A stretch of 64,000 nucleotides of DNA, from the IMG/VR virus record IMGVR_UViG_3300045988_138147; one strand, 5' to 3'. The stretch is from a virus. Positions 1 through 53,508 of this stretch are shown here, piece after piece (within the stretch, counting starts at the first letter, position 1; the number at the start of each line of letters is the position of its first letter). Under the pieces are notes generated by a model. The model made no database searches, had not been told where the DNA came from, and saw only the letters and a list, made by a program, of their open reading frames with translations. The position numbers were made by a program, and so were the translations under genes.

Positions 1-238
1 CCTCTATCACCAGCCGTGGCAGCACCTCTATCACCAGCCGTGGCAGCACCTCTATCACCAGCCGTGGCAGCACCTCTATCACCAGCCGTGGCAGCACCAC
101 TATCACCAGCCGTGGCAGCACCATACTCACCAGCCGTGGCAGCACCTCTATCACCAGCCGTGGCAGCACCTCTATCACCAGCCGTGGCAGCACCTCTATC
201 ACCAGCCGTGGCAGCACCATACTCACCAGCCGTGGCAG
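1..238. repeat. 24-bp tandem repeat, about 10 units (cctctatcaccagccgtggcagca; variants ccactatc / ccatactc)
   Basis: Read directly. The period is a multiple of 3 and lies inside the minus-strand ORF, encoding GAATAG(D/E)(R/Y/S) octapeptide repeats. Confidence 0.95.
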
Positions 239-587
239 GTTTTCCCGGTTCCGCATTACACTCGTTAGTACACCGTTCCTTGACAAAAGATACAGCTGCT
301 TTCACAAACCCCCTTATATCAAGCTCAGCACCTATTCTAATTTTTGAAGAACAAACCTTGTCACTTTCTGAATCGTCTATTTTACCGCTCTGTTCAACCT
401 CACAAAACCTTGACCCGGCTGGCACATAGTAACCAAAAACATCCAGAGGGTAAGGACATGCATGAAAACCTTTCTCACATGCCTTTATGTCGCCTGTTTC
501 TTCATACTCCTTACCTACCTCATACTTAAACCCTCTACAAGATAAATCTTTATCAAATGCTTTATAAGTCTTTAATTTCTGTTCCAT
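1..587 (-). CDS. repeat-containing phage protein, C-terminus beyond the window edge (DUF7666-like N-domain plus octapeptide repeats)
   Basis: Hand translation from ATG at 587: MEQKLKTYKAFDKDLSCRGFKYEVGKEYEETGDIKACEKGFHACPYPLDVFGYYVPAGSRFCEVEQSGK...PATAGEYGAATAGDRGAATAGDRG. The frame is open to position 1. It is absent from the ORF track because no stop lies in the window. Family name is from memory. Confidence 0.75.
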   Translation of the reverse strand, partial: MEQKLKTYKAFDKDLSCRGFKYEVGKEYEETGDIKACEKGFHACPYPLDVFGYYVPAGSRFCEVEQSGKIDDSESDKVCSSKIRIGAELDIRGFVKAAVSFVKERCTNECNAEPGKPATAGEYGAATAGDRGAATAGDRGAATAGDRGAATAGEYGAATAGDSGAATAGDRGAATAGDRGAATAGDRGAATAGDR

Positions 588-629
588 GATATTGTTTATT
601 TGTTGTTATTTTGATATTTTGATTATTTT

Positions 630-809
630 TTATTCAAAGATCGGGCATTTTCTTCTGCCCAACAGATGTATTCCATGAAGCCTGTAGCATGGCTTTTCGG
701 GAATCGAATCGTATTTACGATATATGGCACAACGGCGGCAGATGCGATGTATACTGTATTTCCCTTTTGCGCCGTAACATACCACAGGATAACCGTCAGC
801 AGTTTTCAT
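630..809 (-). CDS. small Cys/His-rich protein (59 aa)
   Basis: Hand translation: MKTADGYPVVCYGAKGKYSIHRICRRCAIYRKYDSIPEKPCYRLHGIHLLGRRKCPIFE. ATGA start/stop overlap with the upstream gene (806..1192). One codon below the ORF-track cutoff. Confidence 0.5.
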   Translation of the reverse strand: MKTADGYPVVCYGAKGKYSIHRICRRCAIYRKYDSIPEKPCYRLHGIHLLGRRKCPIFE

Positions 810-1192
810 GATTTTCTAAACAAATGACTGAACGCATTATCCAAATCCAGGTCCAAATTCAGTTTGGACGGGAAAGATTTAATGTATTCGTACATCTTAT
901 AAGCGAGGTTGTCATCATCACCGCATCTGTCAATCAGTGTGAGTAACATAGCATTCACCATGTCAGAATCATTGCCGAAGTTTTCCTGAGTGGATTCACT
1001 GCAATGATTCACATCACTTTTCAATCTCTTTATCGCGGCTATGGCTGTGTTGAAGTTTCTTTTTGGATCGTGTCTGAGTTCAAAGCCTTCCTTCTTGTAT
1101 TTCTGCTGCATTTCAAGAAGGTTGGTTTCTAAAACGTCCGTGAGGACAAATACGATGTTGGTTATCGTATTCAGTTTGTCTGTTCCTTGCAT
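806..1192 (-). CDS. hypothetical early protein (128 aa)
   Basis: ORF track. Co-oriented and tightly packed in the minus-strand operon. Confidence 0.7.
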   Translation of the reverse strand: MQGTDKLNTITNIVFVLTDVLETNLLEMQQKYKKEGFELRHDPKRNFNTAIAAIKRLKSDVNHCSESTQENFGNDSDMVNAMLLTLIDRCGDDDNLAYKMYEYIKSFPSKLNLDLDLDNAFSHLFRKS

Positions 1193-1272
1193 GATCGTGT
1201 ATTTTTTATCAATTATTTTATTTGATACAACCTATTTTAAAGCCGTATAATGAATTTTCCTGCATGAAAGTA

Positions 1273-1455
1273 TCAACTACAGGCTTTCTTGTTGAAAATC
1301 TTGTCACGGGGCTGGAAATGCTGTCTATCGTTTTCTTTCTTCGCCCTGTCAATCCATCTTTGGAATTTGGCGGCTACAAGAGGACAGTGGATGCGTAGGT
1401 TCCTGTCGCGTTCCGCTTCCCATTCACGTATCTTTGTCTGCATCTCGGTATTCAT
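1273..1455 (-). CDS. hypothetical small protein (60 aa)
   Basis: ORF track. AAGGAG-like motif 8 nt upstream of the ATG at 1455. Confidence 0.6.
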   Translation of the reverse strand: MNTEMQTKIREWEAERDRNLRIHCPLVAAKFQRWIDRAKKENDRQHFQPRDKIFNKKACS

Positions 1456-1473
1456 AAATTTCTCCTTTTTTCG

Positions 1474-1641
1474 TTATGATTCTTTCTTTTGAAAACTGTT
1501 ACAAATTTGCCCGTATCTGTCACAGGCGCACACTCTATGCCCTTTGGCCCTGCAATACGCAGAATTGTCCCCGAAGTCCGAAGCATTCTTGCAGTTCCGG
1601 CATTTGACATATACAATTTCCGGTTTGACTTTCTTTGCCAT
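1474..1641 (-). CDS. small Cys-rich (zinc-ribbon-like) protein (55 aa)
   Basis: Hand translation: MAKKVKPEIVYVKCRNCKNASDFGDNSAYCRAKGHRVCACDRYGQICNSFQKKES. CxxC plus further Cys pairs. Fills the gap between dnaB and the next ORF. Confidence 0.55.
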   Translation of the reverse strand: MAKKVKPEIVYVKCRNCKNASDFGDNSAYCRAKGHRVCACDRYGQICNSFQKKES

Positions 1642-1643
1642 AT

Positions 1644-3017
1644 TTAAAATGGATTGTTATCCTCTTCAGTGCTATTACTTGATATGGGAATAATGTTCAA
1701 GTCGTAAAAGTGAGTAGATGCGGCATTGAAACCACAGATAAACTTCAATAGCCCTATATTCCTGCCTTTAGCTATATCAATCATGGCAGTTCCTTTTGTG
1801 TCCACGTCTGAAAACTCATCAGGATAACGTTTCCCTTTTACCTCGGGGCGATAAATCAGCATGACTATATCTGCTGCTTCCGCTATCTGTCCACTATCCC
1901 TTAACCTTGCCAATGTAGGTACAGGGTTAAGATTATCCCTATTCATCTGTGACAATGCAATAATCCATATATCCAAATCCTTTGCCAGATTCTTCAGCCT
2001 TCTTGCAACCTCTCCCATCTGCTGTTCTTTGTTGCTTCCCTTCATGTTAACATTCAAAATCTGTAAATAATCAACCACAGCCCCGTCTATCCCATTTTTT
2101 AATTTCATTTGACGGATTGAGGATATTATCGTGTCGATATTGGACGTGCTCCTGTCATCGAAATAGATTTGCATTTTTGATACAGTATCCACAGCTCGGT
2201 CTACATTTTCCAACTGCATACCGGAAAGCGGTGAGTAAAGTATAACATTTGAAGGAATACCACTTATCATTGAAATGATTCTAGACGTAATCTGTTCCTT
2301 CTTCATCTCCATTGAATACATGGCTATCTTAGCACCTGCTATTGCAGCGTTTTTCATCATGCTTACAGCAAGGCTAGTTTTTCCTTGGCTTGTTTCACCC
2401 GCAATTATTATCAGGTCTGATTTTTGAAGCCCGCCTGTTTTCCCGTCTATCTTGTCAAATCCGGTCGGTGTACCTGTCAATTCTGTTTTTCCCGACATGT
2501 TGCGGTTTATCGTTTCATACACGGATTCTATGCTTTCCTTGACTGTGCTGATAGAATTACAATTGGATGAGAACAGATTAGCAAGCTGGTCTGACACTTT
2601 TTGCACGACATCGGCAATATCTTCCTTCTCATTAAAAGCGTTACTGTCAAGATAACTCCCAATATCAAAAAAACGTCTTCGTATCATCAGATCATGAAGT
2701 CTGCACGCATATTGATACAGATCGAATGTGTACATTCCTGAAATCTTTACCAGCTCATATAAACTAAAGTCCGGATAGGAGAACTCCAGTTTTGATTTCA
2801 CACTGACAGCATCGGCCCTTCCTCCGGAATCTGTTATCTCCAATACAGTCCTGTATATCTGTTTGTGAAAATCGTTATAGAAACAATTTTCAGTAAGGAT
2901 ATCCCTCACTTCGTAAATGGTATCTCTCTCGCTTAGAATGGTCCCAAGAACACGTTTCTCACATTCTTCATCTCTTGGTAATATACGCATTCCACTCGGT
3001 ATTATTTCATTTTTCAT
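1644..3017 (-). CDS. dnaB: replicative DNA helicase, DnaB family
   Basis: 457 aa. Walker A in GTPTGFDKIDGKTGGLQKSDLIIIAGETSQGKTSLAVSMM. C-terminal RDSGQIAEAADIVMLIYRPE motif typical of DnaB. Confidence 0.93.
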   Translation of the reverse strand: MKNEIIPSGMRILPRDEECEKRVLGTILSERDTIYEVRDILTENCFYNDFHKQIYRTVLEITDSGGRADAVSVKSKLEFSYPDFSLYELVKISGMYTFDLYQYACRLHDLMIRRRFFDIGSYLDSNAFNEKEDIADVVQKVSDQLANLFSSNCNSISTVKESIESVYETINRNMSGKTELTGTPTGFDKIDGKTGGLQKSDLIIIAGETSQGKTSLAVSMMKNAAIAGAKIAMYSMEMKKEQITSRIISMISGIPSNVILYSPLSGMQLENVDRAVDTVSKMQIYFDDRSTSNIDTIISSIRQMKLKNGIDGAVVDYLQILNVNMKGSNKEQQMGEVARRLKNLAKDLDIWIIALSQMNRDNLNPVPTLARLRDSGQIAEAADIVMLIYRPEVKGKRYPDEFSDVDTKGTAMIDIAKGRNIGLLKFICGFNAASTHFYDLNIIPISSNSTEEDNNPF

Positions 3018-7447: not shown

Positions 7448-8013
7448 ATAAATTTTAATTTATAACCTTTTACTGTTTTACTTTTAGATCTTAATGATTT
7501 AGATACGATAGATTCGGTAACACTAAAATAAGATGAGGTTTCTTTAATGCTGTCGAATACCCTCATAAGCACATTCAATGTTGGATGATACATTCCAACG
7601 GGCTTATATTTGGCTATTGCTGTCCTATGTGTCCTTGTGCCATAATTCATATTATATTTATGGGTACACCATTCCAAATTCTCAATAGAATTGTTTGTCG
7701 GATTCTCATCCTTATGATTTATGCAAGGATAGTTATTAGGATTAGGAATGAATGCCTGTGCTACAAGTCTATAAACAAGGAATTTCCTGTTTAAATTCCC
7801 CTTACTGAGTTCAACCCTTGGTCTTCCGTCTTTTTGATAAAAAATCGTCTTTATCCTTTCAGGTACAACTTTTAATCCTCCTTTGAAGTGTGGCACATAT
7901 CTTTTCAAACTTTTCACCCTGCCTAAATTGCTTATCTGATATAGTCCTTCATATCCGACAATATCTTTCCATATCTCAATTTCTTTAGATATAGAACCGC
8001 TTAAAATTGCCAT
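7444..8013 (-). CDS. HNH homing endonuclease (NUMOD4 + HNH)
   Basis: WKDIVGYEGLYQISNLGRVKSLKR (NUMOD4) and INHKDENPTNNSIENLEWCTHKYN (HNH). Confidence 0.88.
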   Translation of the reverse strand: MAILSGSISKEIEIWKDIVGYEGLYQISNLGRVKSLKRYVPHFKGGLKVVPERIKTIFYQKDGRPRVELSKGNLNRKFLVYRLVAQAFIPNPNNYPCINHKDENPTNNSIENLEWCTHKYNMNYGTRTHRTAIAKYKPVGMYHPTLNVLMRVFDSIKETSSYFSVTESIVSKSLRSKSKTVKGYKLKFI

Positions 8014-11356: not shown

Positions 11357-11379
11357 GTCATTTTAATTATAAGTTTGTT

Positions 11380-11427
11380 CCCCTCAACGGCTTAAACCGG
11401 TTGTCACCCCGAATCTTACGGGAGGGG
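11380..11427. repeat. copy 1 of a ~47-nt duplicated structured element
   Basis: cccctcaacggcttaaaccggttgtcaccccgaatcttacgggagggg. Ends can pair (CCCCTC/GAGGGG). Confidence 0.9.
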
Positions 11428-11706
11428 ATATATTAGATCTTTCAGCGATACTTGTGCCTAACCAAGCATACTCCCACGCTAAAGACAAATTGGCGTGCTG
11501 AAAGTAAAATCATTTCAACTTCGTGGCTTTACCACCATCAGACATTTACAACCATTCGACCGTTATCGTCTTATCTTCGGTTGCTATCGGTGTCAATTCC
11601 GTTCCACTTGCACCCACCACTATCCACCATCACTGGCTTCGCTTACGTGCCTTCGCAGAAATACATCTTTTTATCGTACCAATATGTCAAAGAACTTTAA
11701 GTAGCT

Positions 11707-11753
11707 CCCCTCAACGGCTTAAACCGGTTGTTACCACGAATCTTACGGGAGGG
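11707..11753. repeat. copy 2 of the ~47-nt duplicated structured element (2 mismatches)
   Basis: cccctcaacggcttaaaccggttgttaccacgaatcttacgggaggg. Confidence 0.9.
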
Positions 11754-17785: not shown

Positions 17786-19009
17786 TCATGATTTAGACTT
17801 TTTTAAGCCACCCGATATATAATCTATCACTTTCCTGTTAGCCTCATCAATCTTATCCCTGTCGAAATCAATGTATATATCTGTAACATCACAACCAAAG
17901 GAGTGTCCCAAAGCTAAAGATATCACATCTTTAGGGACATCCGCCTTATGTGCTAACGTAGCCCAGGTATGCCGGGCCCAATATGTTGAAAGTTCGGGGA
18001 ACAATGGTTGCTTACTCTTTTTCCCACCAAGCCCTTTTCGTTCAAACGGACCTATCCCTTTAAGATTCTTATTCATCCTATGGGTAAAATCATGATAGTC
18101 TCCATAGTTATCTAATATATCTAGCAAATGAGTTTTACCTTGATACCTATCCAATATAGCTTGTGCTTCCGGCTCTATTTTAATAGAGTAAAACTTCTTT
18201 GTTTTCTGCCGATAATATTCTATACGTCCATCTATTATATCCTTGTGTTCAAGTAAAAGCAAATCACCTATATTTATTCCAACAAGATATACAATCAACA
18301 TAAATATATCCCTGTATTTCTTTTCAAACTCCTCACAAGGATAATCACGCAATAATCTCAATTGTTCAACAGATAAAGCACGTTTTCTAGTTTCTTCTTT
18401 TTTTATCTTATACTTTCGAAAAGGATATAAGGTAGTAATTTCTTCATCAATAGCATAATTGAATACTGCACGAATGTTACGCAGGTGAATAGAATAAGCG
18501 TTTACTTTCATCCCTGATTCAGCCATCCAACTTTCAAAATTAGACAGCCATTTCCTATCCATTGTGTCAAAGGTGCATTCCGGATCATATTCAAGCAGTT
18601 TATTTCTAGTTGTATTATAAACCGTTTTTGTTCCTGTATTACTCTTTATGGAAACAAACTCATCAAGATAATCTATAAAACATCTTGTTTTTTTTACAAC
18701 CTTTTCATCAAATACATATTCGCTGATTATCTCCTTGGCTTTAGCGGAAGGCAAAGAAGATAATCTAGCTTCATCGTCAATAATCAACTTTTCAGCTTTA
18801 TTCTTCAAACTGACAAGCCTTACATTCTTCACTTTATACTGTGGTACAGATTTGTCCAAATAAGACACTTCATTAAACTTTTCAGAAGACGGTGTAGATA
18901 TTCCGGTGGAGAAAACAAACCTCGTTTTCCCTATCCGTATCACAAGAAGAATCATCTGAGACCCATCCTTCTTTGCTCTTGTATCAGGTATCAATCTTAC
19001 TGTTGCCAT
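17786..19009 (-). CDS. int: tyrosine integrase (likely start MATVRLIPD at 19009; the track extends to 19108)
   Basis: WARHTWATLAHKADVPKDVISLALGHSFGCDVTDIYI contains the R-H..R / GH / Y catalytic pattern. Adjacent to the tRNA fragment. Confidence 0.9.
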   Translation of the reverse strand: MATVRLIPDTRAKKDGSQMILLVIRIGKTRFVFSTGISTPSSEKFNEVSYLDKSVPQYKVKNVRLVSLKNKAEKLIIDDEARLSSLPSAKAKEIISEYVFDEKVVKKTRCFIDYLDEFVSIKSNTGTKTVYNTTRNKLLEYDPECTFDTMDRKWLSNFESWMAESGMKVNAYSIHLRNIRAVFNYAIDEEITTLYPFRKYKIKKEETRKRALSVEQLRLLRDYPCEEFEKKYRDIFMLIVYLVGINIGDLLLLEHKDIIDGRIEYYRQKTKKFYSIKIEPEAQAILDRYQGKTHLLDILDNYGDYHDFTHRMNKNLKGIGPFERKGLGGKKSKQPLFPELSTYWARHTWATLAHKADVPKDVISLALGHSFGCDVTDIYIDFDRDKIDEANRKVIDYISGGLKKSKS

Positions 19010-19013
19010 TGTT

Positions 19014-19030
19014 TTGTGACGTTTTTGTGA
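19014..19030. repeat. 17-bp direct repeat TTGTGACGTTTTTGTGA, copy 1 (candidate arm-type site)
   Basis: Identical to 19242..19258. Confidence 0.85.
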
Positions 19031-19140
19031 CGATAAAGATACATAATACCCCCCAAATAACCATCTTAAACGGAATATTTTCTTTGATAATAATATAAAA
19101 AAAAGCACTTACCATTAGATAAGTGCTTGATATTCAGCAG

Positions 19141-19182
19141 AGCGGCAAACGGGACTCGAACCCGCGACCCTCAGCTTGGGAA
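19141..19182 (-). other. 3' 42 nt of a tRNA-Gly(CCC)-like gene (att core). No 5' half is present
   Basis: Minus strand TTCCCAA|GCTGA|GGGTC|GCGGG TTCGAGT CCCGT|TTGCCGC|T reads as anticodon loop, 3' anticodon stem, variable loop, T-arm, acceptor 3' strand and U73. Upstream sequence (tttaaaattt) cannot form the 5' half. Confidence 0.8.
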
Positions 19183-19241
19183 ATTTAAAATTTAAAATAT
19201 AACATACTGATTATAACATATTTAAAAAATCATTATTTTTA

Positions 19242-19258
19242 TTGTGACGTTTTTGTGA
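19242..19258. repeat. 17-bp direct repeat TTGTGACGTTTTTGTGA, copy 2
   Basis: Identical to 19014..19030. The two copies bracket the tRNA fragment. Confidence 0.85.
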
Positions 19259-19312
19259 TTATACTATATTATTTTCTTTGATTTGTGAAGATAAATATTG
19301 TTTCCCTTATTA

Positions 19313-19341: not shown

Positions 19342-19690
19342 ACTGTGATAGAATCTTATAGCCTCATTGACATATAATGATACTGATTGCTCCTTATCCA
19401 AGATAGCAGCCACATCCTCCTCTCTATCCCATTCACAATAGCAAAGATATCAATTCCAGAACGAAATACAAAAAGAAAACTATATTAATTAGTTATAGAG
19501 AGCCAATTTTGAAACAAAAACCAATCTTCTTAAAAAATTGCCATTAATGCAATATTTTTTACTTGCAGGATGAATGAAGAGAATTAATAGAACGGCAAGA
19601 CTGGCGAGTTTGTATTTTTATTGACAGGAAACGAATGTTATGGATTGGGTTCGGAAAAACAAGTATAAAACAGATAGCCTCTATAGATTT

Positions 19691-20971
19691 CTACTGTCTG
19701 AGGTATTTTTCCGGAGATTTTTGAGGTTTTATTTGATTTTGTTTTACATTCCTGCGCTTAGAATATATTTGGTTAGCCCTTGTCAGATCCTTGATGACCG
19801 TTTCATCGAACACCTCGGAATATATCTCTGTTGTCTTGACCGATGTATGCCCCAAGAGTTTTTGGACGGTGGTTATCGGAACGCCTTGATGTACCAACAG
19901 AGTAGCACAAGTGTGTCTGCTGGTATGGTAGGTGAACTTCTTGCCGATATGCGCCATTCTTCCCAATTTCTGCAATGTCCGATTAGTGTCCGAATTGCAA
20001 CCTAATGCAGCCAGTTGTTCGATGCTGTCGTACTTCCGCATTATGCCCAGTGCCTTTCCGTTAAATAATAGATATAGCGGGATATTAAGTTTCACGCCTG
20101 TTTTGACGCTGTTCAACACTAACCATTCTTTTCCGTCTATCGTTATCAGATTTTTATAGGTAAGTTGTTTAAAATCGGAGAATCTCAATCCGCAATAGCA
20201 GCAGAAGAGAAATGCGTCCAGTATGTGCCGGCTGTTGTTCTTCCTGTCCGGCAGTTTAAGATTTTCCAATTTTTCCAAGTCGACGGGCATTAGGAAGTTA
20301 TGTTCCTTCTTCTCCCGCTTGATCTTGAACTTACGGAAAGGATATGCCTCCTGTAATATATAACCTTCATTTATTGCTTCGTTGACCAAGGTACGAAGTA
20401 TTCTCATGTGTTTCCCTACCGTGTTTACTTTCAATCCCTTGTTGCGGAGGAATGCGTCAAACTCCTTTAGAAACGTATAATTGATGTCCGTGAACTCTAT
20501 CACGTTCCGAAATTCCTTCAATGTGGCTACTGTGCCCAGCATGTTATCCTTGGTTCCCGGTTTCCTATCGGAATTCACTATAACCTGTTGGGCGAACTTA
20601 AGAAACGAAACCACGGGTTTTACCCCCTTCCTTACAGCTTCCTTCAATGTGGATAAGTTAGATTCAAGACCTCTCTTCCAATAGCTTAACTCTATAGCCT
20701 GTAATTCCAATATATGCTCATATAGCATTGCATTAAGTTCTTGCGACTGCGGATGGTTGATTACTTGGGCACCATCCTTACTCCAACATTCCGGCTTTAG
20801 ATAGACATTGGTTTTAAAGTATACCTTCCTCTGATTCAGATAGGCTTCTATTTGTACAAGGGCTGTCCCCTGTCGGTTTAACTTGTTTTGCCGGTTATAA
20901 ACTAAACGATATCTGATCTTCTCTAACATACTCAACTTTTTGTTTTTAAAGTTAAAAAAATTCTTCTGCAT
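19691..20971 (-). CDS. second tyrosine recombinase (candidate shufflon/inversion recombinase)
   Basis: GLRFSDF ... YHTSRHTCATLLVHQGVPITTVQKLLGHTSVKTTEIYSEV contains the R, H..R, GH and Y catalytic pattern. The start lies 27 bp from the outermost crossover motif. Confidence 0.9.
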   Translation of the reverse strand: MQKNFFNFKNKKLSMLEKIRYRLVYNRQNKLNRQGTALVQIEAYLNQRKVYFKTNVYLKPECWSKDGAQVINHPQSQELNAMLYEHILELQAIELSYWKRGLESNLSTLKEAVRKGVKPVVSFLKFAQQVIVNSDRKPGTKDNMLGTVATLKEFRNVIEFTDINYTFLKEFDAFLRNKGLKVNTVGKHMRILRTLVNEAINEGYILQEAYPFRKFKIKREKKEHNFLMPVDLEKLENLKLPDRKNNSRHILDAFLFCCYCGLRFSDFKQLTYKNLITIDGKEWLVLNSVKTGVKLNIPLYLLFNGKALGIMRKYDSIEQLAALGCNSDTNRTLQKLGRMAHIGKKFTYHTSRHTCATLLVHQGVPITTVQKLLGHTSVKTTEIYSEVFDETVIKDLTRANQIYSKRRNVKQNQIKPQKSPEKYLRQ

Positions 20972-20982
20972 TTACAAAATAA

Positions 20983-21402
20983 ACCACAAAAATTGTTCTG
21001 GGGGGACTCCTGCCGATATCGACGAATACTAACAAGGGATTAGCAATGAGAACAGCATATTACGATCTTATTCAAGGCAAATTATACAAGATTTCATATA
21101 AAGAAGAATTACATGTATACAAACCTATAATATGTTTACTATATGTACTGAAAGATGGTATATCATCTTACTATGTAGCCTCATTAAGTGGATATCGTAA
21201 TGGGGTTTCCCATTATAAATTGATATGTGGAAATGAAATCCAATTTAAGCTGTATCAAAAGCTAAACAGTAGCAAATATGACTTTATACTGGAATGTCCT
21301 GAGAATTCAGGTGGTTTTATGGAAATAAAAGCCATGAATGATTTAACGGTTATTGAAACAACAGAATCATTAAGTGATTGGCAACAAATTGTAACAGAAT
21401 AA
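20983..21402 (+). CDS. silent alternative tail-fibre C-terminal cassette A (start-less; track ORF 21046..21402)
   Basis: The frame opens right after a stop at 20980 and reads TTKIVLGGLLPISTNTNKGLAMRTAYYDL... through the CTGGGGGGACT motif, in frame with the track ORF. Confidence 0.7.
   Translation, partial: TTKIVLGGLLPISTNTNKGLAMRTAYYDLIQGKLYKISYKEELHVYKPIICLLYVLKDGISSYYVASLSGYRNGVSHYKLICGNEIQFKLYQKLNSSKYDFILECPENSGGFMEIKAMNDLTVIETTESLSDWQQIVTE
20998..21008 (+). repeat. crossover motif CTGGGGGGACT, site A
   Basis: Read directly. Confidence 0.9.
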
Positions 21403-21415
21403 TAGCATAAGTTGA

Positions 21416-21724
21416 GAGCTGGGGGGACTGATTGGTACAGTAACAGCCAATAAGGATGGATTAATGTCTAAAAATGGTTTTCTTGAAAGAAGCAAGGGCA
21501 ACACATTAGACTTTAATGATTATACGATTTCAGGTATGTGGGTATTTTCTGATACGGGCTTTATTAATGGACCATCAGTGTATAAAGGGGGGATTTTATT
21601 AGTTTTTAAAACAACTAATGGGAATATATTGCAAATCTGTTGCGATTATACTAATTCTATTTTTATACGTATTTATTGGGGAGGATGGAAATCTTGGTCA
21701 CAAATCACAACAGTGGTGATATAA
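21416..21724 (+). CDS. silent alternative tail-fibre C-terminal cassette B (start-less; track ORF 21464..21724)
   Basis: The frame opens after a stop at 21413 and reads ELGGLIGTVTANKDGLMSKNGFLERS...IYWGGWKSWSQITTVVI. DGLMS and a W-rich end are typical of fibre tips. Confidence 0.7.
   Translation, partial: ELGGLIGTVTANKDGLMSKNGFLERSKGNTLDFNDYTISGMWVFSDTGFINGPSVYKGGILLVFKTTNGNILQICCDYTNSIFIRIYWGGWKSWSQITTVVI
21419..21429 (+). repeat. crossover motif CTGGGGGGACT, site B
   Basis: Read directly. Confidence 0.9.
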
Positions 21725-21735
21725 TTTCCCCACTT

Positions 21736-21746
21736 CTGGGGGGATT
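21736..21746 (+). repeat. crossover motif variant CTGGGGGGATT, site C
   Basis: Read directly. Confidence 0.85.
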
Positions 21747-21754
21747 CTTGGGTA

Positions 21755-21792
21755 TAAAAAACGGGTGGTCCGGTACAAGCCGGTTCCACCCG
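21755..21792 (-). terminator. intrinsic terminator of the tail-fibre operon
   Basis: CGGGTGG(t)CCGGtacaagCCGG(tt)CCACCCG hairpin. On the minus strand it is followed by TTTTTTATACC. Lies about 50 nt after the stop at 21841. Confidence 0.7.
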
Positions 21793-21840
21793 ATCCTGAT
21801 ATGCACAACGCCATGTGCGGTGCAAAGGTAATCCATGTTT

Positions 21841-22233
21841 CTAAGAAGCCAATACAAAAGTTCTAAAATCTCCCCACTCTCCGTTCAAACAACGTCTGAA
21901 ACCAGCAACATCAGCTCCCAAGCGGAATGCCATTTGAATTACATATCCTTGTCCATCGTTAAAAACTATCATTATGGAATAATTGAGAACAACACTAATT
22001 CCATTATTTCCGGTCACATGATACATTCCGCTTGCAGTTGCACTATTTACCTCTTCGTCTGTGGTCAATTTACGTTGTGGCATGAAAGGGTACAGATTCA
22101 AACTAGTGAAAAGTCCCCCCAGGATTGTAGCTAATTGCTGTTTTGTAACTTTTGCCACGTCATTTCCTTTTACAACCAACGCATAATCAAAGTCCGTCAA
22201 CTGCGATACTTCATTTAATTTTTTATCTGCCAT
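21841..22233 (-). CDS. tail-fibre tip / receptor-binding protein (expressed copy: constant N-terminus plus variable C-terminus)
   Basis: N-terminus MADKKLNEVSQLTDFDYALVVKGNDVAKVTKQQLATILGGL is a typical fibre N-terminal pattern. C-terminus ...FRRCLNGEWGDFRTF is knob-like. Confidence 0.75.
   Translation of the reverse strand: MADKKLNEVSQLTDFDYALVVKGNDVAKVTKQQLATILGGLFTSLNLYPFMPQRKLTTDEEVNSATASGMYHVTGNNGISVVLNYSIMIVFNDGQGYVIQMAFRLGADVAGFRRCLNGEWGDFRTFVLAS
22112..22122 (-). repeat. crossover motif CTGGGGGGACT in the expressed gene (site D, inverted relative to A-C)
   Basis: Plus strand reads agtccccccag. Encodes L38-G-G-L41. Confidence 0.9.
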
Positions 22234-22246
22234 AATCGTATTTTTT

Positions 22247-22891
22247 TTAATTATTTATTACTGCTTGATTTTCTACCACTTGAACATAGCCACCCGAAAC
22301 AAGATTTTCCAAATCGAATGCCATGCCTATTCCACTGTCACGGATACAGAGATAAAGGACTTCCTTATCGGTGTAATACTTGCCTTCTTCTAGCACCATG
22401 TTATGTGCCCAAGGTATAGGATCATCCAGTGTGCCGGAGTGCTCTATCTGCACAACCTTGTACAAGGATTCCGTACCCGTTCCCGGCTTCCAGTCCTCCT
22501 GCGGTGTATGTTTCTGTATAACCTCATAGAGCGTGCTGCCATAGCGGAAGCGGAACTGCACATCAACTTCCGTACCCATCAGATCCTCCCATGCCGGAAA
22601 ATAGTCTTTCTTCGACAATGCTTCTTCTGTAGTAAGCCCGGCATTGTTGATATTCGCTGAGATATCATTGAGCAGCGTATCCACACGGTCAAGTGCTTCA
22701 ACGTCTATAGCCGCCACATCAATAAATGATGCTTCGACAATCATCTGCTCCTTCTGCTTCGATGTGATCTCTTTCCACACGGCCACATCCTCAGGGCTGT
22801 TTATCAATACCTGATTTTCAAATCTTCGTTCCGACAGAGGCATATCCTCAACCTGTGTCAGATAACAATCATAACCTGCTTGTAATATCAT
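22247..22891 (-). CDS. hypothetical tail-fibre-associated protein (214 aa)
   Basis: ORF track. Position between two fibre genes. Confidence 0.6.
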   Translation of the reverse strand: MILQAGYDCYLTQVEDMPLSERRFENQVLINSPEDVAVWKEITSKQKEQMIVEASFIDVAAIDVEALDRVDTLLNDISANINNAGLTTEEALSKKDYFPAWEDLMGTEVDVQFRFRYGSTLYEVIQKHTPQEDWKPGTGTESLYKVVQIEHSGTLDDPIPWAHNMVLEEGKYYTDKEVLYLCIRDSGIGMAFDLENLVSGGYVQVVENQAVINN

Positions 22892-22896: not shown

Positions 22897-25800
22897 TTAC
22901 TCAATTAAATCCATACGTGTTATATACCAATGGTTGTTAAAGGCCTTCATCTCCAAAACATAAGGCCTTGCCATCTGAATTTCTGTCTTATTGTTATATG
23001 ATCCCGCCAGTCCGCAGAAATAGTTCGTAGCCTTGTACTTGTCCGGATTCTTAGCCACCCTTGATGTCATGTCTACTACAAACTCCAGTTTCAATCCGTT
23101 CCATGATGATGCGGGAGGAAGGGTTATGGTTCCGCCAAGACCATCAGCAGAAAAGAATGTAGATCCCTGAGTGGAAGGATTCACAGTCATGTTACCTTCC
23201 GAATCAGCCAGATTATCCATATCGCTTCCCGGTGAATAGAAGAGAGTGGCGGTGATTATACCTGTCACATTTGCCTTCGTGGAAACAAATTCACCCAGTT
23301 CATTCACCCGGTACGGAGCACTGCCCGGAACACCACCGCCAGCCCATATCCTTACAGGTGTCGTACCGGCTTCCTTGCTGCTTCCTCCTGTAAGACCGGC
23401 TACAACATTGTTATTTGAGTCCTTTATTATCAGTTCATTGCCTTGGACGAAATCAAGACTGGCGTTCTTGGCAATAATAAGACTGGTATAGATAGGACCA
23501 ACATTACTTAATTCCGTCCAGTAGGTAGTGTTGGTATAGGTTATAGAAGACGAAGATGTATGTGTTTTAATACACTTATAAACATCCCATCCGTCCACCA
23601 CACTATTGTTTCTCACCATTACGATATCAATATACCGCGTGCCGCTTGTAAGGGCTTCGTCATTTCTGTACGTTACCCCGGTTGTCCATTCGGAATCCCG
23701 TATGATACAGCCCTGTATTCCTTGTACGCCCTGATCTCCCTTATCTCCTTTGTCCCCCTTTTCACCATCATCACCCTTGTCGCCTTTTTCTCCGGTATCG
23801 CCCTTCTCAGCCCATACGTCATATTCGGCTGTATTCACTTCACCCGTCAAGCAGTATCCGCCATCGCTGAACGTGAACCGGTTGCCGGCATTATCCGTCC
23901 AACACCACAAGGGAGGATTCGTAGTGGATGCCTTGGCTACATAAGAGCCACCACCCATCGAAACGACACCCATCTTGGGAACGACCATTCCGGTCTTGAA
24001 CTGCCCCATTTGGGTGTAACCCTGTCCATCCACGCCATCCTGAATCATCGGCACGCTCTCTATATCAACCAATACACCTTTCGCATCATAGAATGAAAAT
24101 ATGATTTTGGAAGAAATGGATGAAGAAGGAATAGAGGCACCATTACTGGTACTGATTTCAGAACCGTTATCTATGGCGTATTTCAAGGTTCCATCCGTAG
24201 TGACTTCCGAAACACCGCCAACTGTTTTCATCCTCGTTGCAGAAATCCCGGAAACGGAATACGTACCGTCTTTCTTCTTCACAATATTGCTCGCCGAAGT
24301 GACCAGACTATACAATACCGCATTCTTACCGCCACGTACACCGGCAAGCGTGAACTTGAGTACACGTGACTGTTCCACACCGTCAGCCATAGCCTTCACG
24401 GTAATTGATATCTCAGTACGGTCAGCAAGAGCCGTTCCTTTCGCTACAGATAATGTAATATCACCCGTAGACAAGTCATAAGAGGATGTTACACCTGTCA
24501 CGCTCTGCACGGATATGGAGGAAAGGGAAAGCTTTGTTGCTCCGTTCCACATGGATGCTGTTGTCGTAATTGACACCTCATCCACAGTTTTCCCATTTTC
24601 GTCCAATGCAGCATTATCCATCTGGTTATCCAAGTCGGCACTGATCGCATTGAACGAATGGTTAGCCCACGGTTCGGGAGTAGAGAAAGCACCCCATATA
24701 CCGTCCTTCTTCGTTCTTTTGCTTACCCATTCATAGGGTATGCTTGCCGACACGCCTACAGGATCATCATTCCAGCCGGAAGGCACATAATCGTCAGTCT
24801 GTGATGTTTCCGGAGTGGAAGGTCTTGTATTCGTCGTGGTGTTCGTGAAGATAAACTCATGATCTTTCGCATCCCTTCCGTCTTTTCCGCTTTGGACAAG
24901 AAGTTCATATTCATCGGTATTTATCTCTCCTGTAAGACAATAACCGCCATCGCTGAACGTAAACCGGTTGCCGGCATTGTCCGTCCAGCACCATAAGGGA
25001 GGATTTGTAGTGGCTACCTTGGAAAGGAATGAACTTCCTCCCATTGTAACGATACTCATTTTGGGAACAACCAAGCCGGAATACCACGGACCGCTATTGG
25101 TCACGCTCACACCGTCCTTTCCCGGTGCTCCCGGTGTTCCCGTATCACCTTTAGACGCAATTTCCAGCCAGTCGCCATTAGATCCCGGTACAGAGGACGA
25201 ACCATCCTCATTGATACACGCCCACATGCTTCCGTTATAAGACAAGCTGTCGTAGTAATCGTAATGTACGCCAGGTATATAGCCTTCCTCACGGAAATTC
25301 AAAGTCTGCACAGGTGTTCCATCCGGCTTTATCTGCTTGATGATACCTGTCATATATATATTATTCAGATACATGGAATAACCGTCCATGTTCAGTCCGA
25401 ATATATTCAGATTGGAAAGGTCGCCATATTGTAGGGCAACATTGGCGGCGGAGATCTCCCATGTATTCTGTTTCCACAACATACGGGTGTAAGTCCTTGT
25501 TTCGTAGACTGAGGTCTGGCGCTCCGTATTAGTGAAACTGCCGTATGCCACGAAAGTCATCATCTCAAAAGGATCGAAAGAAGAAGACCACGATGAAGAA
25601 GTGGGGCGCAACTGGTACTTGAATGTTTCGTTTCTTTCACCTGTAACTTCCGTAACCGTGAAATAGACTGTACAGAATCCGGCAAAACGTCTGTTGCCCT
25701 TTCCATCGTCGTAATCCTCCGTAGCGTTCCCGGTGATGTTATGATAGATACCCATACAGATATCTCCTACTGCGACAGCACCAATCTCACCATCTTCCAG

Positions 25801-26481
25801 CTTAAGTGTACATGTCTTGGTCCCTGTATCTACCGTTTCTATAATGCCGGCTCCGGGCGCACGCCACTTGTCGCCCAGCGTGACCATCACACGATTGTAT
25901 CTTAATTCGGGAACTTCGAGAAACCGGCGGATAAACATGCTCTCAAACTCCCCATGCCCTGTATCGAATATCTTGGCTCCGAATCCGGTTAAGCCGCTTG
26001 CAAAACCATTCTTTCCGAAAACAGCACCGGCAAACATACTGAGAAGAAATTTAGTGGAATCCGCCACGTCCTTCCGCAAGAATATCTCTTTCAGCTTCTC
26101 CGCACTGTTCTCTATCTCAGTCATTACACGCAACGCGCTCATCACATCTTCATCGGTGTAGGTGATATCTTCGTCACCCTGCTTTACGATGCGGTTTATC
26201 AGGTTTCCTGCTATCTTAAGCCCCTTAAGGTAATTAATGATCCCTTGCGCATCATCATCGTTCAATGCGGATAAGAACCAGTTTTGTACAGGTGTGTCCT
26301 CATCCAGCGTATATGCGGAATTGGCATGATCGGCATTGGTGACATCACCGCCGCCACCACTGCCGCCACCGCCGTTCTGCTTTATCTCTTCAACCTCAAT
26401 GGAGATCTTGCTAAAGTTGCTGTTGATGCGGTCTGCCGTTTCGCTCCAAGTTCCTGTTTTGTTTATTGTATTAAGCTCCAT
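22897..26481 (-). CDS. collagen-like tail fibre protein (likely start MELNTINK at 26481; the track extends to 26511)
   Basis: G-X-Y runs GDTGEKGDKGDDGEKGDKGDKGDQGVQGIQG and GDTGTPGAPGKDG. N-terminal module shared with 29577..29915. Carries an internal ~60-aa duplication. Confidence 0.85.
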   Translation of the reverse strand: MELNTINKTGTWSETADRINSNFSKISIEVEEIKQNGGGGSGGGGDVTNADHANSAYTLDEDTPVQNWFLSALNDDDAQGIINYLKGLKIAGNLINRIVKQGDEDITYTDEDVMSALRVMTEIENSAEKLKEIFLRKDVADSTKFLLSMFAGAVFGKNGFASGLTGFGAKIFDTGHGEFESMFIRRFLEVPELRYNRVMVTLGDKWRAPGAGIIETVDTGTKTCTLKLEDGEIGAVAVGDICMGIYHNITGNATEDYDDGKGNRRFAGFCTVYFTVTEVTGERNETFKYQLRPTSSSWSSSFDPFEMMTFVAYGSFTNTERQTSVYETRTYTRMLWKQNTWEISAANVALQYGDLSNLNIFGLNMDGYSMYLNNIYMTGIIKQIKPDGTPVQTLNFREEGYIPGVHYDYYDSLSYNGSMWACINEDGSSSVPGSNGDWLEIASKGDTGTPGAPGKDGVSVTNSGPWYSGLVVPKMSIVTMGGSSFLSKVATTNPPLWCWTDNAGNRFTFSDGGYCLTGEINTDEYELLVQSGKDGRDAKDHEFIFTNTTTNTRPSTPETSQTDDYVPSGWNDDPVGVSASIPYEWVSKRTKKDGIWGAFSTPEPWANHSFNAISADLDNQMDNAALDENGKTVDEVSITTTASMWNGATKLSLSSISVQSVTGVTSSYDLSTGDITLSVAKGTALADRTEISITVKAMADGVEQSRVLKFTLAGVRGGKNAVLYSLVTSASNIVKKKDGTYSVSGISATRMKTVGGVSEVTTDGTLKYAIDNGSEISTSNGASIPSSSISSKIIFSFYDAKGVLVDIESVPMIQDGVDGQGYTQMGQFKTGMVVPKMGVVSMGGGSYVAKASTTNPPLWCWTDNAGNRFTFSDGGYCLTGEVNTAEYDVWAEKGDTGEKGDKGDDGEKGDKGDKGDQGVQGIQGCIIRDSEWTTGVTYRNDEALTSGTRYIDIVMVRNNSVVDGWDVYKCIKTHTSSSSITYTNTTYWTELSNVGPIYTSLIIAKNASLDFVQGNELIIKDSNNNVVAGLTGGSSKEAGTTPVRIWAGGGVPGSAPYRVNELGEFVSTKANVTGIITATLFYSPGSDMDNLADSEGNMTVNPSTQGSTFFSADGLGGTITLPPASSWNGLKLEFVVDMTSRVAKNPDKYKATNYFCGLAGSYNNKTEIQMARPYVLEMKAFNNHWYITRMDLIE
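23818..23995. repeat. internal duplication, copy 2 (VVPKMGVVSMGGGSYVAKASTTNPPLWCWTDNAGNRFTFSDGGYCLTGEVNTAEY)
   Basis: Aligned by eye with 24905..25080. Long identical runs (ccatcgctgaacgt, aaccggttgccggcatt). Confidence 0.8.
24905..25080. repeat. internal duplication, copy 1 (VVPKMSIVTMGGSSFLSKVATTNPPLWCWTDNAGNRFTFSDGGYCLTGEINTDEY)
   Basis: See copy 2. Confidence 0.8.
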
Positions 26482-26614
26482 ATATTCTGTTCTACTTTTA
26501 CCATTCCGCATCCGGATGTACTTCTACGGACAGATGGTTCATTATTCTGATGATTAATTCTCGTATCATAAATATATGTTTTGAGTGTTACTGATAACTT
26601 TCCGGGTTACTCTA

Positions 26615-29576: not shown

Positions 29577-29915
29577 TTATAATATTGATGTTACATCGTT
29601 TATCTCCTCGGCTGTCAGGTATCCGTTCAAGTCAACACTTCCGCCACCTCCTGTCGTGCCTGTAGGACTCCATTTCCCCTTTATCTTGCATTCATATATA
29701 GGGCCCGGTATGGTATCCCCCACAATAGCCCAGTCACCCACAACAGGAGATGGAACAGCCTCTTCCAGCAATTTAAGACTAGAGAACAAGCCTTTGTTGC
29801 GGATGCCGTTCTGCTTGACCTTCTCCACTTCGGCGGACGTCTTGCTAAAGTTGTTGTTAAGACGGTCTGCCGCTTCGCTCCAAGTTCCCGTTTTGTTAAT
29901 ACTATTCAGTTCCAT
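29577..29915 (-). CDS. short fibre-anchor protein sharing the N-terminal module of the collagen-like fibre
   Basis: MELNSINKTGTWSEAADRLNNNFSKTSAEVEKVKQNG versus MELNTINKTGTWSETADRINSNFSKISIEVEEIKQNG. Confidence 0.7.
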   Translation of the reverse strand: MELNSINKTGTWSEAADRLNNNFSKTSAEVEKVKQNGIRNKGLFSSLKLLEEAVPSPVVGDWAIVGDTIPGPIYECKIKGKWSPTGTTGGGGSVDLNGYLTAEEINDVTSIL

Positions 29916-29916
29916 A

Positions 29917-32900
29917 TCACTTCTTTACTTTTAAAGTCCCGTTTGTCACGACTCCTTCTACTGTCTCATATTCCACATATACCTGACCTGACGAAACATC
30001 ATCTTTCCCCGGCCAATTACTGCAATCAATATTGGCCACATGCTTATACACATTCACCCCGTTGTATATCGGTTTCATCCCGACCAGCAGCATTTCGCCG
30101 TTGGAACCATAAAAGGATACGTTATTGGGATTAAGAATAATATCCGTATTTTCTACATAATTCTGTATTCTGATACGTTCCGGATATACAGTCGTTTCTT
30201 GTATCAATTGGTCTCCTACATATTTCCGTAGAATCAAATCACCATACTCCCATCCGTCTGATGATGTGTCGAACCTTAATATCAAGGTGGCATGTCCTTC
30301 AGTCGTGTACATTTCAAGAGTGTTTTTATCCGGATCAATGACAATGCGTTTCCCGTCAACAGATGTTTCTACTTTTCCGCGGAAAAATCCGCCCAAGGCT
30401 TCAACCACACCTCTGAACTTACCACCCAAGGCATAAATATAGCCACGAAGGAACGTATCGCCACCATGAGTGGCAACAAAGTTCGCCATATTCGCCCATT
30501 CCGTATCTGTGGGCTGGTAATCGGGGTCATTACGAAACTTCATTACGGTTAATATAGCCTGTTGAAGCGTGCCACCTGCCCAAAATGCCACATCATCATC
30601 ATCATTGTATATGCCGCTAACTCCGGCTGTGACCTTCTGCATCTTACCATCCTTGTAGTTGCCTAGTTGGATCATATTGGCAAGAATCAGACCACCAAGA
30701 ATATCCACAGAACCATCCTTGATCGCGCTGGCGATATAATTGATTGACTGAAAACCGGCTGTTGCCTTGTCGTTATCCAAAATGGACGGTTTCCAGTCTG
30801 TAGCGATGGTCCCTCTTTCTAACTGAAGGTCACAAACGGTTGCGGTACCACTGATGAGAAATATACCACTGCCATTGAAGGTAATCTTATGGGTATATCT
30901 TTGATAAGAGGATGTGAGAGGCTGAGTTGTGCTGAAATCACCGCACGAAACAGACACAGACGTACCTTTTGCTTTATAACTGATAACATAACTTTCCCCT
31001 TTGATTAATGATACGGACTGGGACAAACTACCGATTGCAGCAGAGTACCCGGAGCCGGCATCACTGTCCGCAGATACGGTAGCCACTCCCGTCCAATATT
31101 CCAGTTGCTTGCTAAAAAGTTCGGTATCCGCCGATAGCTCGGTAGCGGCAGACAGGTCCTCTGTCTCATAATCTCCGGTAAACCCGGAATTGCGCAACAG
31201 ATTGACACTTCCGACAGCCGCATTGTCTATCGCATCCTTGGCCTCTTGGGCAAGATCTGCGGCCGCCTGTATCTCATCCGGCAAGCCTTCCATGTTACGC
31301 CATCCGGTGGAACCCTGCTCGATATGAAACATACCCTTGATATCCACACCTTTATCCTGAGTGTATTCCATGTAAGTGGTCCGGTCCTTGTCGCCAATGT
31401 ACGTATCTCCGTACACCTTCATCCGGGCCTTGCCGGTAGATTTGTCAAAATCAAAAGAAATGACATCTTTCCCGGTCAAGGTAAAATCATTAATACCCTG
31501 ATACATGATGATGGACGGAGAAACTTCGTTCACCGAAGAGAGAATTATCGCCGCCTGTCGGGTGATATCGGTCTTATGGCCTAATCCCACGATATCATCA
31601 CCTGCCACCGGAACATCGTTCTCGACATTAGGATCACATACGGTCTTGGACAAGTCTATATAGTTCTCACCTACTGCTGTGACCAACCGCCAATAATAGC
31701 GGTTGCCGACATGATGAGAAACGCCTGTCTTGATATTGCACTCCTGAGCTATGGCAAGAGATCCCGGAGTAAACTGGTTCTCTATCTCAATTCCGTCTTC
31801 CTCTTCCTTGAAATAACAACGGTAGACATCATCCAACTCATCCACACGGTTGCATTTCATGCCTGCATGGGAAATCACCTGCTCGCCACCTACATACGTC
31901 TTCTTCTTTACTTCAAGCTCGTCAAAAACGGCTTTGACCTTGACATACAGATAATCAACAACAGCCTGTGACATACCGTTCTCAAGTACAGTAATTCCAC
32001 TACCGTTCTTACCAATCAAAAGACCTTTCAAAAAAGTGATCAGCTCATTAGCTGTGTCGTTATTTATCTTTGAGATAAAATAACGGGATATTCTGCCAAG
32101 AATATCTGACACGTTGAGAGAGACACCCATCCTCTCACCTATGATATCCCCGGCTATCTCTGTAATCGTACTTCTCAAAGCGGAAACATTGGCGGACAAC
32201 TTATCTGTTAGCTCCACGGATATATCATACAGGCAATTTTTATCCGCCTTACAAGTAAATGAGTTCACATACATGAAGTATTCCTTATCATTATACTTTA
32301 TGTATATACGCGAGTTCTCATTCAACAGACCAGCTAACATACTGTTTTCTGCAAGGAAGACACGTGAGAAACTTACGGAAAAAGAGAACTTCTCATCGTT
32401 GTTTTCAGACATATACTTTATCAACGCCTCATCTAATCTCTTCTCGGCGGCAAGCACAAGAGATTTCGGCATTTTAATACCTGTAATCACAAACTTATCC
32501 CCAACAGAAGGTTTATAGTTATTTGTGGCATTAGGCATAACAACCCCGAAAGTAGTATTGTCCTTTTTTACCGCAATCCAAACCTCATTTGTAGAAGTGT
32601 TTTGTTGGCTTTCTATATATTGGGATGTTTGTGAAGTAACCTTCTGTTCAAAATCTCCTGCTGGTAAGTTCCCGGAAGAATCCACCAATACAGGATTGAA
32701 TGCCCTTCCCGGCTCATTGTCCTTATAGGTAACTCCTATTTCAAACTCGCAAGCAGCACAATTACCCGTAGTCATATTGATTACAGCCGTACCACCTTCC
32801 AAACCTTGTTCGAACAGGTTAAAACCGTAATCCCCATTATATATATGTAATTTTATGTAGAAATAAGAATGTACATACTCATCCGTGCCATTGAATATAT

Positions 32901-51396: not shown

Positions 51397-51486
51397 GTTC
51401 CAACGCTTCCAAGAGCTTGAACTTTCTCAATGGCAATCCCATCATTTCTTAGGGGTTGCCATTTTTTTATGTAAAGAATTTAAGTT

Positions 51487-51894
51487 ATGAGACAAAGAGT
51501 CTATATATGGATTGCGGTAGGGATAGCATTGCTATTGCTGTTTGGATCATGCCGGAGCATAAGGTATGTCCCAGTAGAAACTATAAGGACTGACAGTCTT
51601 TATCTTACCGTACACGAACGTGATTCCATTCACATTAAGGATTCTGTCTATATAAGGGAGAAAGGCGATTCAGTGTTTGTTGACAAGTGGCATATAGTCT
51701 ACCGTGACAGGATGATTCGCGATACAGCCTATATAGAGAAGGAGAAAGAGTTAGAAGTCCCCTACCCTGTGGAGAAGGAATTAACATGGTGGCAGAAGAC
51801 GAAATTAGAACTAGGAGAGTTTTCAATAGGTATTATATTAATATTATTAATCGTAGTCATTTGGCTGGTAAAGAAGAAGGGAGGTGCAAGATGA
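51487..51894 (+). CDS. candidate unimolecular spanin (N-terminal lipoprotein signal + C-terminal TM)
   Basis: IAVGIALLLLFGSC lipobox-like. C-terminal FSIGIILILLIVVIWLV followed by KKKGG. Beta-rich middle. 135 aa. Confidence 0.5.
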   Translation: MRQRVYIWIAVGIALLLLFGSCRSIRYVPVETIRTDSLYLTVHERDSIHIKDSVYIREKGDSVFVDKWHIVYRDRMIRDTAYIEKEKELEVPYPVEKELTWWQKTKLELGEFSIGIILILLIVVIWLVKKKGGAR

Positions 51895-53486: not shown

Positions 53487-53508
53487 TCCGGTGAGAAAGG
53501 AGGTAGAT

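Follow-up and report, generated by a model that had tools for sequence, protein, structure and literature searches.

Can a phage exchange the end of its own tail protein by flipping short segments of DNA? The question is raised by positions 19,691 to 22,233 of IMG/VR virus record IMGVR_UViG_3300045988_138147, a stretch of 64,000 nucleotides (hereafter the window, meaning the whole stretch), where a small tail gene is followed by silent open reading frames (ORFs) on the opposite strand and by a tyrosine recombinase gene. An earlier sequence-only reading of this DNA had proposed a shufflon-like tail-fibre tip locus, in which inversion between one expressed site and several silent sites would fuse a constant N-terminus to different receptor-binding ends. 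In our analysis, the locus is very probably a phage-encoded tyrosine-recombinase shufflon by which a phage of gut Phocaeicola/Bacteroides varies the distal portion of a small tail (fibre-tip) protein.

Sites and silent cassettes in the window

Direct reading of positions 19400-22700 located the sequence CTGGGGGGACT at 20998-21008 and 21419-21429 on the plus strand and at 22112-22122 on the minus strand, and the variant CTGGGGGGATT at 21736-21746 on the plus strand. A pattern search of the 64-kb window for CTGGGGGGAYT returned exactly four matches, three on the plus strand and one on the minus strand, all inside 1.1 kb; the mean expectation from shuffled sequence was 0.02, and none of 100 shuffles reached four. 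In the 130-aa ORF 21841-22233 (minus strand), the motif is translated as L38-G39-G40-L41. On the plus strand, the frame that reads site A meets an in-frame stop at 20980-20982, 5 codons before the site, and the frame of site B meets one at 21413-21415, 1 codon before the site, with no start codon in between in either case. The motif frames of A, B and C extend to stops at 21402, 21724 and 21831 (134, 101 and 31 codons, respectively). The motif positions, the strands and the L38-G-G-L41 translation given in the sequence-only reading were all borne out by direct reading and the ORF list, as was its claim that the frames at the plus-strand sites open 1-5 codons upstream and lack a start. The features of the array are as follows.

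20998..21008, plus strand: site A, CTGGGGGGACT, the outermost site, fixed beside the recombinase; its left flank AAAATAAACCACAAAAATTGTT is kept in relatives.
20998..21402, plus strand: silent cassette A (cluster c47), LGGLLPISTNTNKGLAMRTAYY...QQIVTE, 134 codons, lacking its own start at the site.
21419..21429, plus strand: site B, CTGGGGGGACT, from the pattern search.
21419..21724, plus strand: silent cassette B (cluster c6), LGGLIGTVTANKDGLMSKNGF...ITTVVI, 101 codons.
21736..21746, plus strand: site C, CTGGGGGGATT, directly downstream of the fibre-gene terminator.
21736..21831, plus strand: stub cassette C (cluster c4), 31 codons, crossing the terminator hairpin.
21756..21791, minus strand: intrinsic terminator of the expressed fibre-tip gene, GGGUGGAACCGG...CCGGACCACCC and then UUUUUU, from the RNA fold of the minus strand.
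21841..22111, minus strand: expressed variable C-terminal module D (cluster c1), FTSLNLYPFMPQRK...FVLAS and stop, from ORF translation.
22112..22122, minus strand: expressed site D, CTGGGGGGACT on the minus strand, coding L38-G-G-L41.
22123..22233, minus strand: constant N-terminal exon MADKKLNEVSQLTDFDYALVVKGNDVAKVTKQQLATI, 37 codons, 100% identical in the related loci L002-L004; the presumed anchor to the tail.

The terminator hairpin and its U-run sit at the single turnaround of the shufflon, where site orientation changes, and abut site C. This hairpin (21756-21791) was missed by a simple terminator scan, and a sigma-70 promoter scan is uninformative for a Bacteroidota phage.

In the mechanism that we propose, the fixed 5' exon (22233-22123, 37 codons) would end in the recombination site, itself translated as Leu-Gly-Gly-Leu, and the downstream cassettes, promoter-less and start-less, would each carry at their head the same asymmetric site, turned the other way. 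The recombinase would bring the expressed site together with any of the inverted silent sites and flip the intervening DNA, so that another cassette comes to lie in frame after the fixed exon. With exchange in CTGGGRG, the RAYTnnT bases would travel with the cassette. With sites at the cassette 5' ends and recombination between inverted sites only, there would always be one turnaround, carrying the terminator, and the turnaround cassettes (here D and the stub C) would remain paired tail-to-tail.

Fusion of the cassettes to N-terminal exons in related phages

The relatives compared were 80 viral contigs and 4 genome contigs with a recombinase 74-100% identical to that of the window, at least 93% in all but one. 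With the relaxed site CTGGGRGRAYT, which is used across the relatives, the related loci held 303 sites and 300 cassettes, and the cassettes formed 79 clusters at 70% identity.

The 130-aa protein, used as the query, recovered module D behind N-termini of 38 aa, 39 aa and ~90 aa, and also as a silent cassette behind unrelated out-of-frame sequence. Cassette A was found behind the N-terminus of the window, MADKKLNEV...LLGGL, in protein P0121 (100% identity), and cassette B behind the same N-terminus in P0242, P0244 and P0260 (95-97% identity). Both cassettes also occurred behind a 90-aa N-terminus, which with cassette A makes proteins of 226 aa, and behind a third N-terminus of 39 aa. At the DNA level, window positions 20998-21429 recur inverted in L089-L091 at 99.8% identity and meet the N-terminal exon exactly at the site; L092 has the same arrangement for cassette B. 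Collectively, the fusions in P0121 (A) and in P0242, P0244 and P0260 (B) and the DNA junctions in L089-L091 support the proposal that the plus-strand ORFs are alternative C-termini of the tail gene.

The cassette pool is shared by at least four types of N-terminal exon, of 38 aa (MADKKLNEVSQL), 39 aa (MADKKLNEVPVV), ~90 aa (MSDLNLDNIVGF) and 16 aa (MEKMELSEALKANAS), which were seen in loci L015, L036 and L059 and in proteins P0202 and P0247. L043 and L041 carry the same two cassettes behind different exons.

Inversion isomers and order of the arrays

Loci L019 and L017 have flanks that are 99.3-99.8% identical and an internal segment of 1097 nt that is 100% identical but inverted. The inverted segment ends at sites +316 and +1402, and the expressed cassette changes from c15 to c28. 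L051 and L076 form a second pair of inversion isomers, and L014 and L020 differ by an inversion that does not involve the expressed site. The sequence-only reading had pointed to related phages as the place to look for permuted cassettes, and L019/L017 and L051/L076 are exact isomers of that kind. It had also named, as a finding that would speak against inversion, an 11-mer not conserved at cassette boundaries; the motif was present at every cassette boundary in 78 related loci.

Since each site lies 5' of its cassette and the sites are opposed, inversion predicts a constant order of the form +...+-...-, and this order was found without violation in all 73 loci with at least two sites. Inversion-only dynamics further predict that turnaround cassettes never leave the turnaround, and this matches the occupancy of that position by c1 (28 of 29 occurrences), c2 (18 of 19), c4 (10 of 10) and c6 (0 of 10). 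By enumeration, 12 configurations are reachable for the window, with C and D always paired, and the reachable C-termini number four, one of them via stub C. The ends of the contigs also fall in this region: 27 of the 84 related contigs end in the array, no more than 1.6 kb beyond the recombinase start, and short contigs with an identical 130-aa gene stop ~50 nt beyond its stop codon, at the array. This evidence supports the interpretation that inversion would fuse the constant N-terminus to different ends.

In L008 (+27), the left half of site A (CTGGGGG) is joined straight to the 3' end of an inverted cassette, and in L001 (916-940) the stub site is eroded (TAATTGGGATT). Both junctions may be aberrant or decayed recombination products. 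L001 was considered as a direct product of C-by-D inversion in the window phage but was kept as supporting evidence only, since its right half comes from a long-N-terminus phage and its stub site is eroded. The loci L002-L004, three independent contigs that are arranged alike, have an N-terminal exon identical to that of the window, other cassette sets and five sites.

In a nucleotide search, the GenBank phage collection, which apparently does not include BV01, yielded no close relative of the window. L088 (an 841-nt Acinetobacter lwoffii scaffold) and L085 (a contig of an 'uncultured Clostridia' metagenome-assembled genome) carry a 98% identical recombinase; their taxon labels most likely reflect contamination or mis-binning, not host range.

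Crossover point and nature of cassette C

In the pair L019/L017, a G/A difference at core position 7 travelled with the cassette, which places the crossover within CTGGGGG. Core position 5 was uniform within 51 of 57 arrays, where shuffling predicts ~47 heterogeneous ones, and core position 7 varied within 40 of the 57. Strand exchange most likely takes place within the first seven bases, CTGGGRG, with an overlap of ~7 bp and a conserved right arm RAYTnnT, as judged from one informative pair and with lineage effects as a confounder.

Cassette C had been counted as a third alternative receptor-binding end, a claim that did not hold: it is a vestigial stub of 31 codons that overlaps the fibre-gene terminator. 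Its start, FLGIKNGW, resembles cassettes of the LGINDTW type, and it is probably the remnant of a deleted LGIN(D)TW-type cassette that kept its site. In seven of its ten occurrences, all at the turnaround, c4 was paired with c1, and none of 42 complete arrays had it in the expressed position. Inversion through C would give a truncated protein of 68 aa, which is probably non-functional.

The recombinase and the separate integration module

The gene that flanks the array is the following.

19691..20971, minus strand: shufflon-associated tyrosine recombinase, with 426 aa if translated from the first ATG and 412 aa if translated from the second (20929).

Pfam assigned the domains Arm-DNA-bind_5, Phage_int_SAM_5 and Phage_integrase to this protein, tyrosine-recombinase domains only, and found no serine-recombinase (Resolvase) domain. 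The ORF is intact, and its translation shows the catalytic motifs GLRFSD, HTSRH and GH...EIY. No invertase family, nor any other model, reached the cut-off in an NCBIfam scan of the recombinase. The spacing of 27 bp between recombinase and outermost site, as first described, holds for the first ATG, which lies 27 nt from site A; the public gene call on an identical contig begins at the second ATG (412 aa, ~69 nt from site A), so that the exact distance is uncertain. Among the relatives, a site lies 27-28 nt upstream of the first ATG of the recombinase ORF in 78 of 78 loci with a readable flank.

A tblastn search of 72,556 plasmids with the recombinase gave matches in only 205 records (E<=1e-5), led by Acinetobacter, Bacteroides, Parabacteroides and Phocaeicola; neither Escherichia nor Salmonella was among the ten genera named for these records. 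On this sequence evidence, the enzyme is a Bacteroidota-type tyrosine recombinase of a different lineage, with no detectable relationship to Rci. The description 'Rci-like' thus stands as an analogy of layout and falls as a statement of enzyme lineage, given the plasmid search and the domain architecture. We infer that this adjacent recombinase is the invertase.

A second tyrosine recombinase is encoded at 17786-19108, its start probably being an internal ATG near 19009, and adjoins an attP-like region (19009-19290). The region contains the reverse complement of a tRNA 3' end (T-arm GGTTCGAGTCC and acceptor) at 19137-19182 and is flanked by arm-type repeats of 17-27 nt (TTGTGACGTTTTTGTGA) at 19009-19035 and 19237-19263, in agreement with the earlier claim of a different integrase beside attP. 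Given this classical attP layout beside the second recombinase, a dedicated enzyme for integration is a reasonable assumption. Homology to nearly all relatives begins only at ~19288. The window lacks the 25-mer of the BV01 attP (GTCTAGTTTAGTTTTTGTGTTGTAA), also when up to 3 mismatches are tolerated.

Comparison with known inversion systems

A shufflon has been reported for BV01-like phages of P. vulgatus (PMC13596623, Research Square preprint, 16 Sep 2026): a recombinase-flanked, multi-cassette region of 1.7 kb at the end of a tail-fibre gene, with a directional 10-bp motif TGGGAGAACT, three cassettes and six isoforms, in which junction-spanning reads showed all configurations. BV01 itself carries three PF00589 genes, of which the attP-adjacent one is required for excision (PMC8354205). 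The layout of recombinase, multi-cassette region and distal tail-gene end is the same in the window, whose array also overlaps the tail gene's distal end, so that inversion would alter C-terminus and stop codon as in the BV01-like shufflon. The BV01-like motif TGGGAGAACT (11-mer form CTGGGAGAACT) is the commonest variant among the relatives of the window (104 of 303 sites), and the sites of the window, (C)TGGGGGGACT or ...GATT, differ from it by two or three substitutions. The window recombinase is 93% identical, at the protein level, to that of L086, an isolate contig of P. vulgatus ATCC 8482. Unlike BV01, the window has CTGGGGGGAYT sites, an N-terminal exon of 37 codons and another cassette set that includes a stub; its attP is of the tRNA type, without the 25-bp BV01 attP, its lysis module lies elsewhere and its gene order differs. 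Given the shared motif family and the 93% identical recombinase, the window is a relative of the BV01-like system already described, with a different integration module. This kind of shufflon is therefore known (PMC13596623); new here are the family-wide cassette pool of 79 clusters and the turnaround rule.

A related locus was found in the cultured temperate Bacteroides salyersiae phage BS-TP2 (PQ571275.1), whose recombinase, annotated as 'integrase', is 60.7% identical. Its expressed gene gp85 (MEKMELSEALKANASV-LEEL-...) is accompanied by four inverted CTGGAAGRACT sites that head silent cassettes of the same families, and the variant sites are translated as LEEL/LEGL (L096/L097, record positions 56724-57555 and 1-3000); the remainder of the shufflon is annotated as hypothetical proteins and a 'PepSY-like' protein. 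The system thus extends beyond BV01-like phages and is present in a cultivable isolate.

The Rin shufflon of Bifidobacterium prophages (Mavrich et al. 2018, PMC6109161) likewise has a phage tyrosine invertase that flanks tandem variable cassettes for receptor-binding C-termini, with short asymmetric sites of 11 bp (rix, TTCCCTAACCC) and the constant N-terminal gene part opposite. It differs in that rix is unrelated to the site of the window, in that Rin has no arm domain whereas the window enzyme has Arm-DNA-bind_5, and in host phylum and cassette folds. The R64/IncI shufflon (Rci, sfx, pilV tips) resembles the window in having a tyrosine recombinase beside invertible segments, alternative C-termini and inversions only. 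Like those of the window, the sfx sites are asymmetric, with a short conserved core and one conserved arm. The R64 target, however, is a pilus adhesin and not a phage tail protein, the window recombinase is not of the Rci family, and the site CTGGGRGRAYT differs from the sfx consensus. In the systems Gin/Mu G, Cin/P1 C and Min/p15B, inversion also swaps the host-range C-terminal part of a tail fibre, and p15B (Min) has several crossover sites and many isomers. The Gin, Cin and Min systems use serine invertases with an enhancer and Fis, and Gin, Cin, Pin and Min differ from the window in this class of enzyme, which is a tyrosine recombinase here. The chromosomal Tsr-family invertases of Bacteroides share host clade, recombinase superfamily and intragenic inversions that swap protein parts; they differ in being host-encoded and in acting on SusC/D (outer-membrane) and hsdS (restriction-specificity) genes.

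Tail gene context and other features of the window

Two tail genes lie upstream of the tip gene, and portal and terminase genes lie beyond them.

22247..22891, minus strand: upstream tail gene, 214-aa protein with matches to PHROG tail-fibre families; synteny kept in relatives.
22897..26511, minus strand: collagen-repeat tail fibre of 1204 aa, with matches to PHROG tail-fibre families and Pfam Collagen; synteny kept in relatives.

Neither the tip protein nor the cassettes had a match in Pfam, PHROGs or NCBIfam. An AlphaFold2 (AF2) model of the N-terminus with cassette A (predicted local distance difference test, pLDDT, 71.6) shows a beta-hairpin and a helix followed by an all-beta domain, with a low-confidence or disordered linker exactly at the LGG junction. 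The best-scoring structures in a fold search with it, all weak matches, were an Acinetobacter phage tailspike, T4 gp9 and various tail fibres. For the 130-aa protein, AF2 reached a pLDDT of 48.6, and that model was not used. From its gene context, the protein likely has a tail-tip or receptor-binding role; the variable domain would bind the host surface, and tip switching would then probably change which bacteria the phage attaches to.

The 1204-aa fibre gene contains an internal duplication of 175 nt (78%; 23819-23993 and 24905-25079) with the motif SNPPLWCWTDNAGNRFTFSDGGYCLTGE. A 113-nt repeat (80%) at 26371-26483 and 29805-29917 joins the 5' ends of the 1204-aa gene and of a 112-aa ORF (29577-29915) and suggests a shared N-terminal adaptor. 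Elsewhere, a tandem repeat of ~72 nt with copies 92-96% alike occupies positions 1-238, and a 48-nt direct repeat (96%) lies in a regulatory region at 11379-11426 and 11706-11753.

The block 51486-55718 (plus strand) of the window lies directly beside the recombinase, in the opposite orientation, in most relatives (compared with L009, L013, L017, L018, L020, L024 and L025). Since BS-TP2 has its holin and endolysin genes at that recombinase-side position, the block is probably the lysis module. The window instead has the integrase, attP and the replication module beside the recombinase, a layout shared by L015 alone. No inverted repeats that would explain the displacement of the lysis module were found at the break points.

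Alternative explanations

Several observations weigh against an active shufflon driven by the phage's own enzyme. The exact repeat common to the expressed site and A, B and C is just 11, 11 and 9 bp. What ties the recombinase to inversion is adjacency and co-occurrence alone, and a host invertase working in trans may drive the inversion. The receptor-binding role comes from gene position and weak fold matches (TM-scores 0.35-0.5). In L002-L004 the recombinase is cut to 92 aa (7734-8012 of locus L002), yet the sites persist, and this array may be frozen. Turnaround partners vary by lineage and some junctions (L001, L008) are irregular, which indicates that deletion or homologous exchange also reshapes the arrays. 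The window itself could be a frozen relic, in which inversions were site-specific in the past, the copy no longer switches and the plus-strand cassettes are stored remnants. The truncated recombinase of this sister lineage, with the same arrangement in three independent contigs, would fit such a history, as would the decay of cassette C to a stub. We nevertheless consider it improbable: the recombinase reads as an uninterrupted ORF that retains its catalytic motifs, three of the four sites match the 11-mer exactly, near-identical isomer pairs mark very recent inversions in relatives whose recombinases are 96% identical (nucleotide), short contigs with the identical 130-aa gene break off at the array, and active switching has been reported in BV01-like phages (PMC13596623). 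From these features, we infer that this copy is probably active at present.

The varied turnaround partners mean that horizontal cassette exchange certainly happens, and the same cassettes stand behind three or four N-terminal exons in many lineages. That homologous or illegitimate recombination between co-infecting phages at the LGGL-coding sequence accounts for the locus, the recombinase being a second integrase or a dimer resolvase, is nonetheless very improbable. Identity over 9-18 bp is, as is well established, too short for RecA-type exchange, the 100% identical inverted segments and the single turnaround, kept in 73 of 73 loci, bear the mark of site-specific inversion, the constant linkage of site and recombinase (27-28 nt in 78 of 78 loci) speaks against the enzyme having an unrelated role, and a separate integrase with its own attP is present. 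It is scarcely credible that the ORFs 21046-21402 and 21464-21724 are independent small genes (e.g. fibre chaperones) with their own internal ATG, the motif being merely coding or regulatory. Gene callers do list genes of 118 and 86 aa here, with an internal ATG 15-16 codons past the site; but the codons between site and internal ATG are kept in the fusions (e.g. LGGLLPISTNTNKGLA-M in P0121), stops lie just upstream of each site, and the same modules are fused to N-terminal exons in many genomes.

The preferred reading remains a tyrosine-recombinase shufflon encoded by the phage. A wider version of it joins three proposals. At least 79 interchangeable tip domains, shared horizontally, may fit onto at least three different N-terminal anchors in Phocaeicola/Bacteroides phages; stub site C may amount to a programmed 'tip-less' OFF state; and the recombinase, lacking space upstream of site A for a fixed promoter of its own, may owe its expression to read-through from the late tail operon. 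Taken jointly, these proposals are rather unlikely to be correct. If they are, read-through would tie shuffling to the lytic phase of growth, and the tips within each burst would be mixed.

Significance

Assemblers break at loci of this kind, silent cassettes are called as hypothetical genes and the invertase as 'integrase', as in BS-TP2. Such loci can be recognised and correctly annotated by a grammar of three elements: a recombinase with a site 27-28 nt away, one turnaround only, and a terminal pair that is locked. The short asymmetric site and the compact recombinase might serve as an inversion-only tool in Bacteroides genetics. DNA inversion is a means by which Bacteroidaceae vary capsules and surface proteins, and inversion of the phage tip would mirror that strategy. 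Such tip variation may explain broad or shifting host range among abundant temperate phages of the gut.

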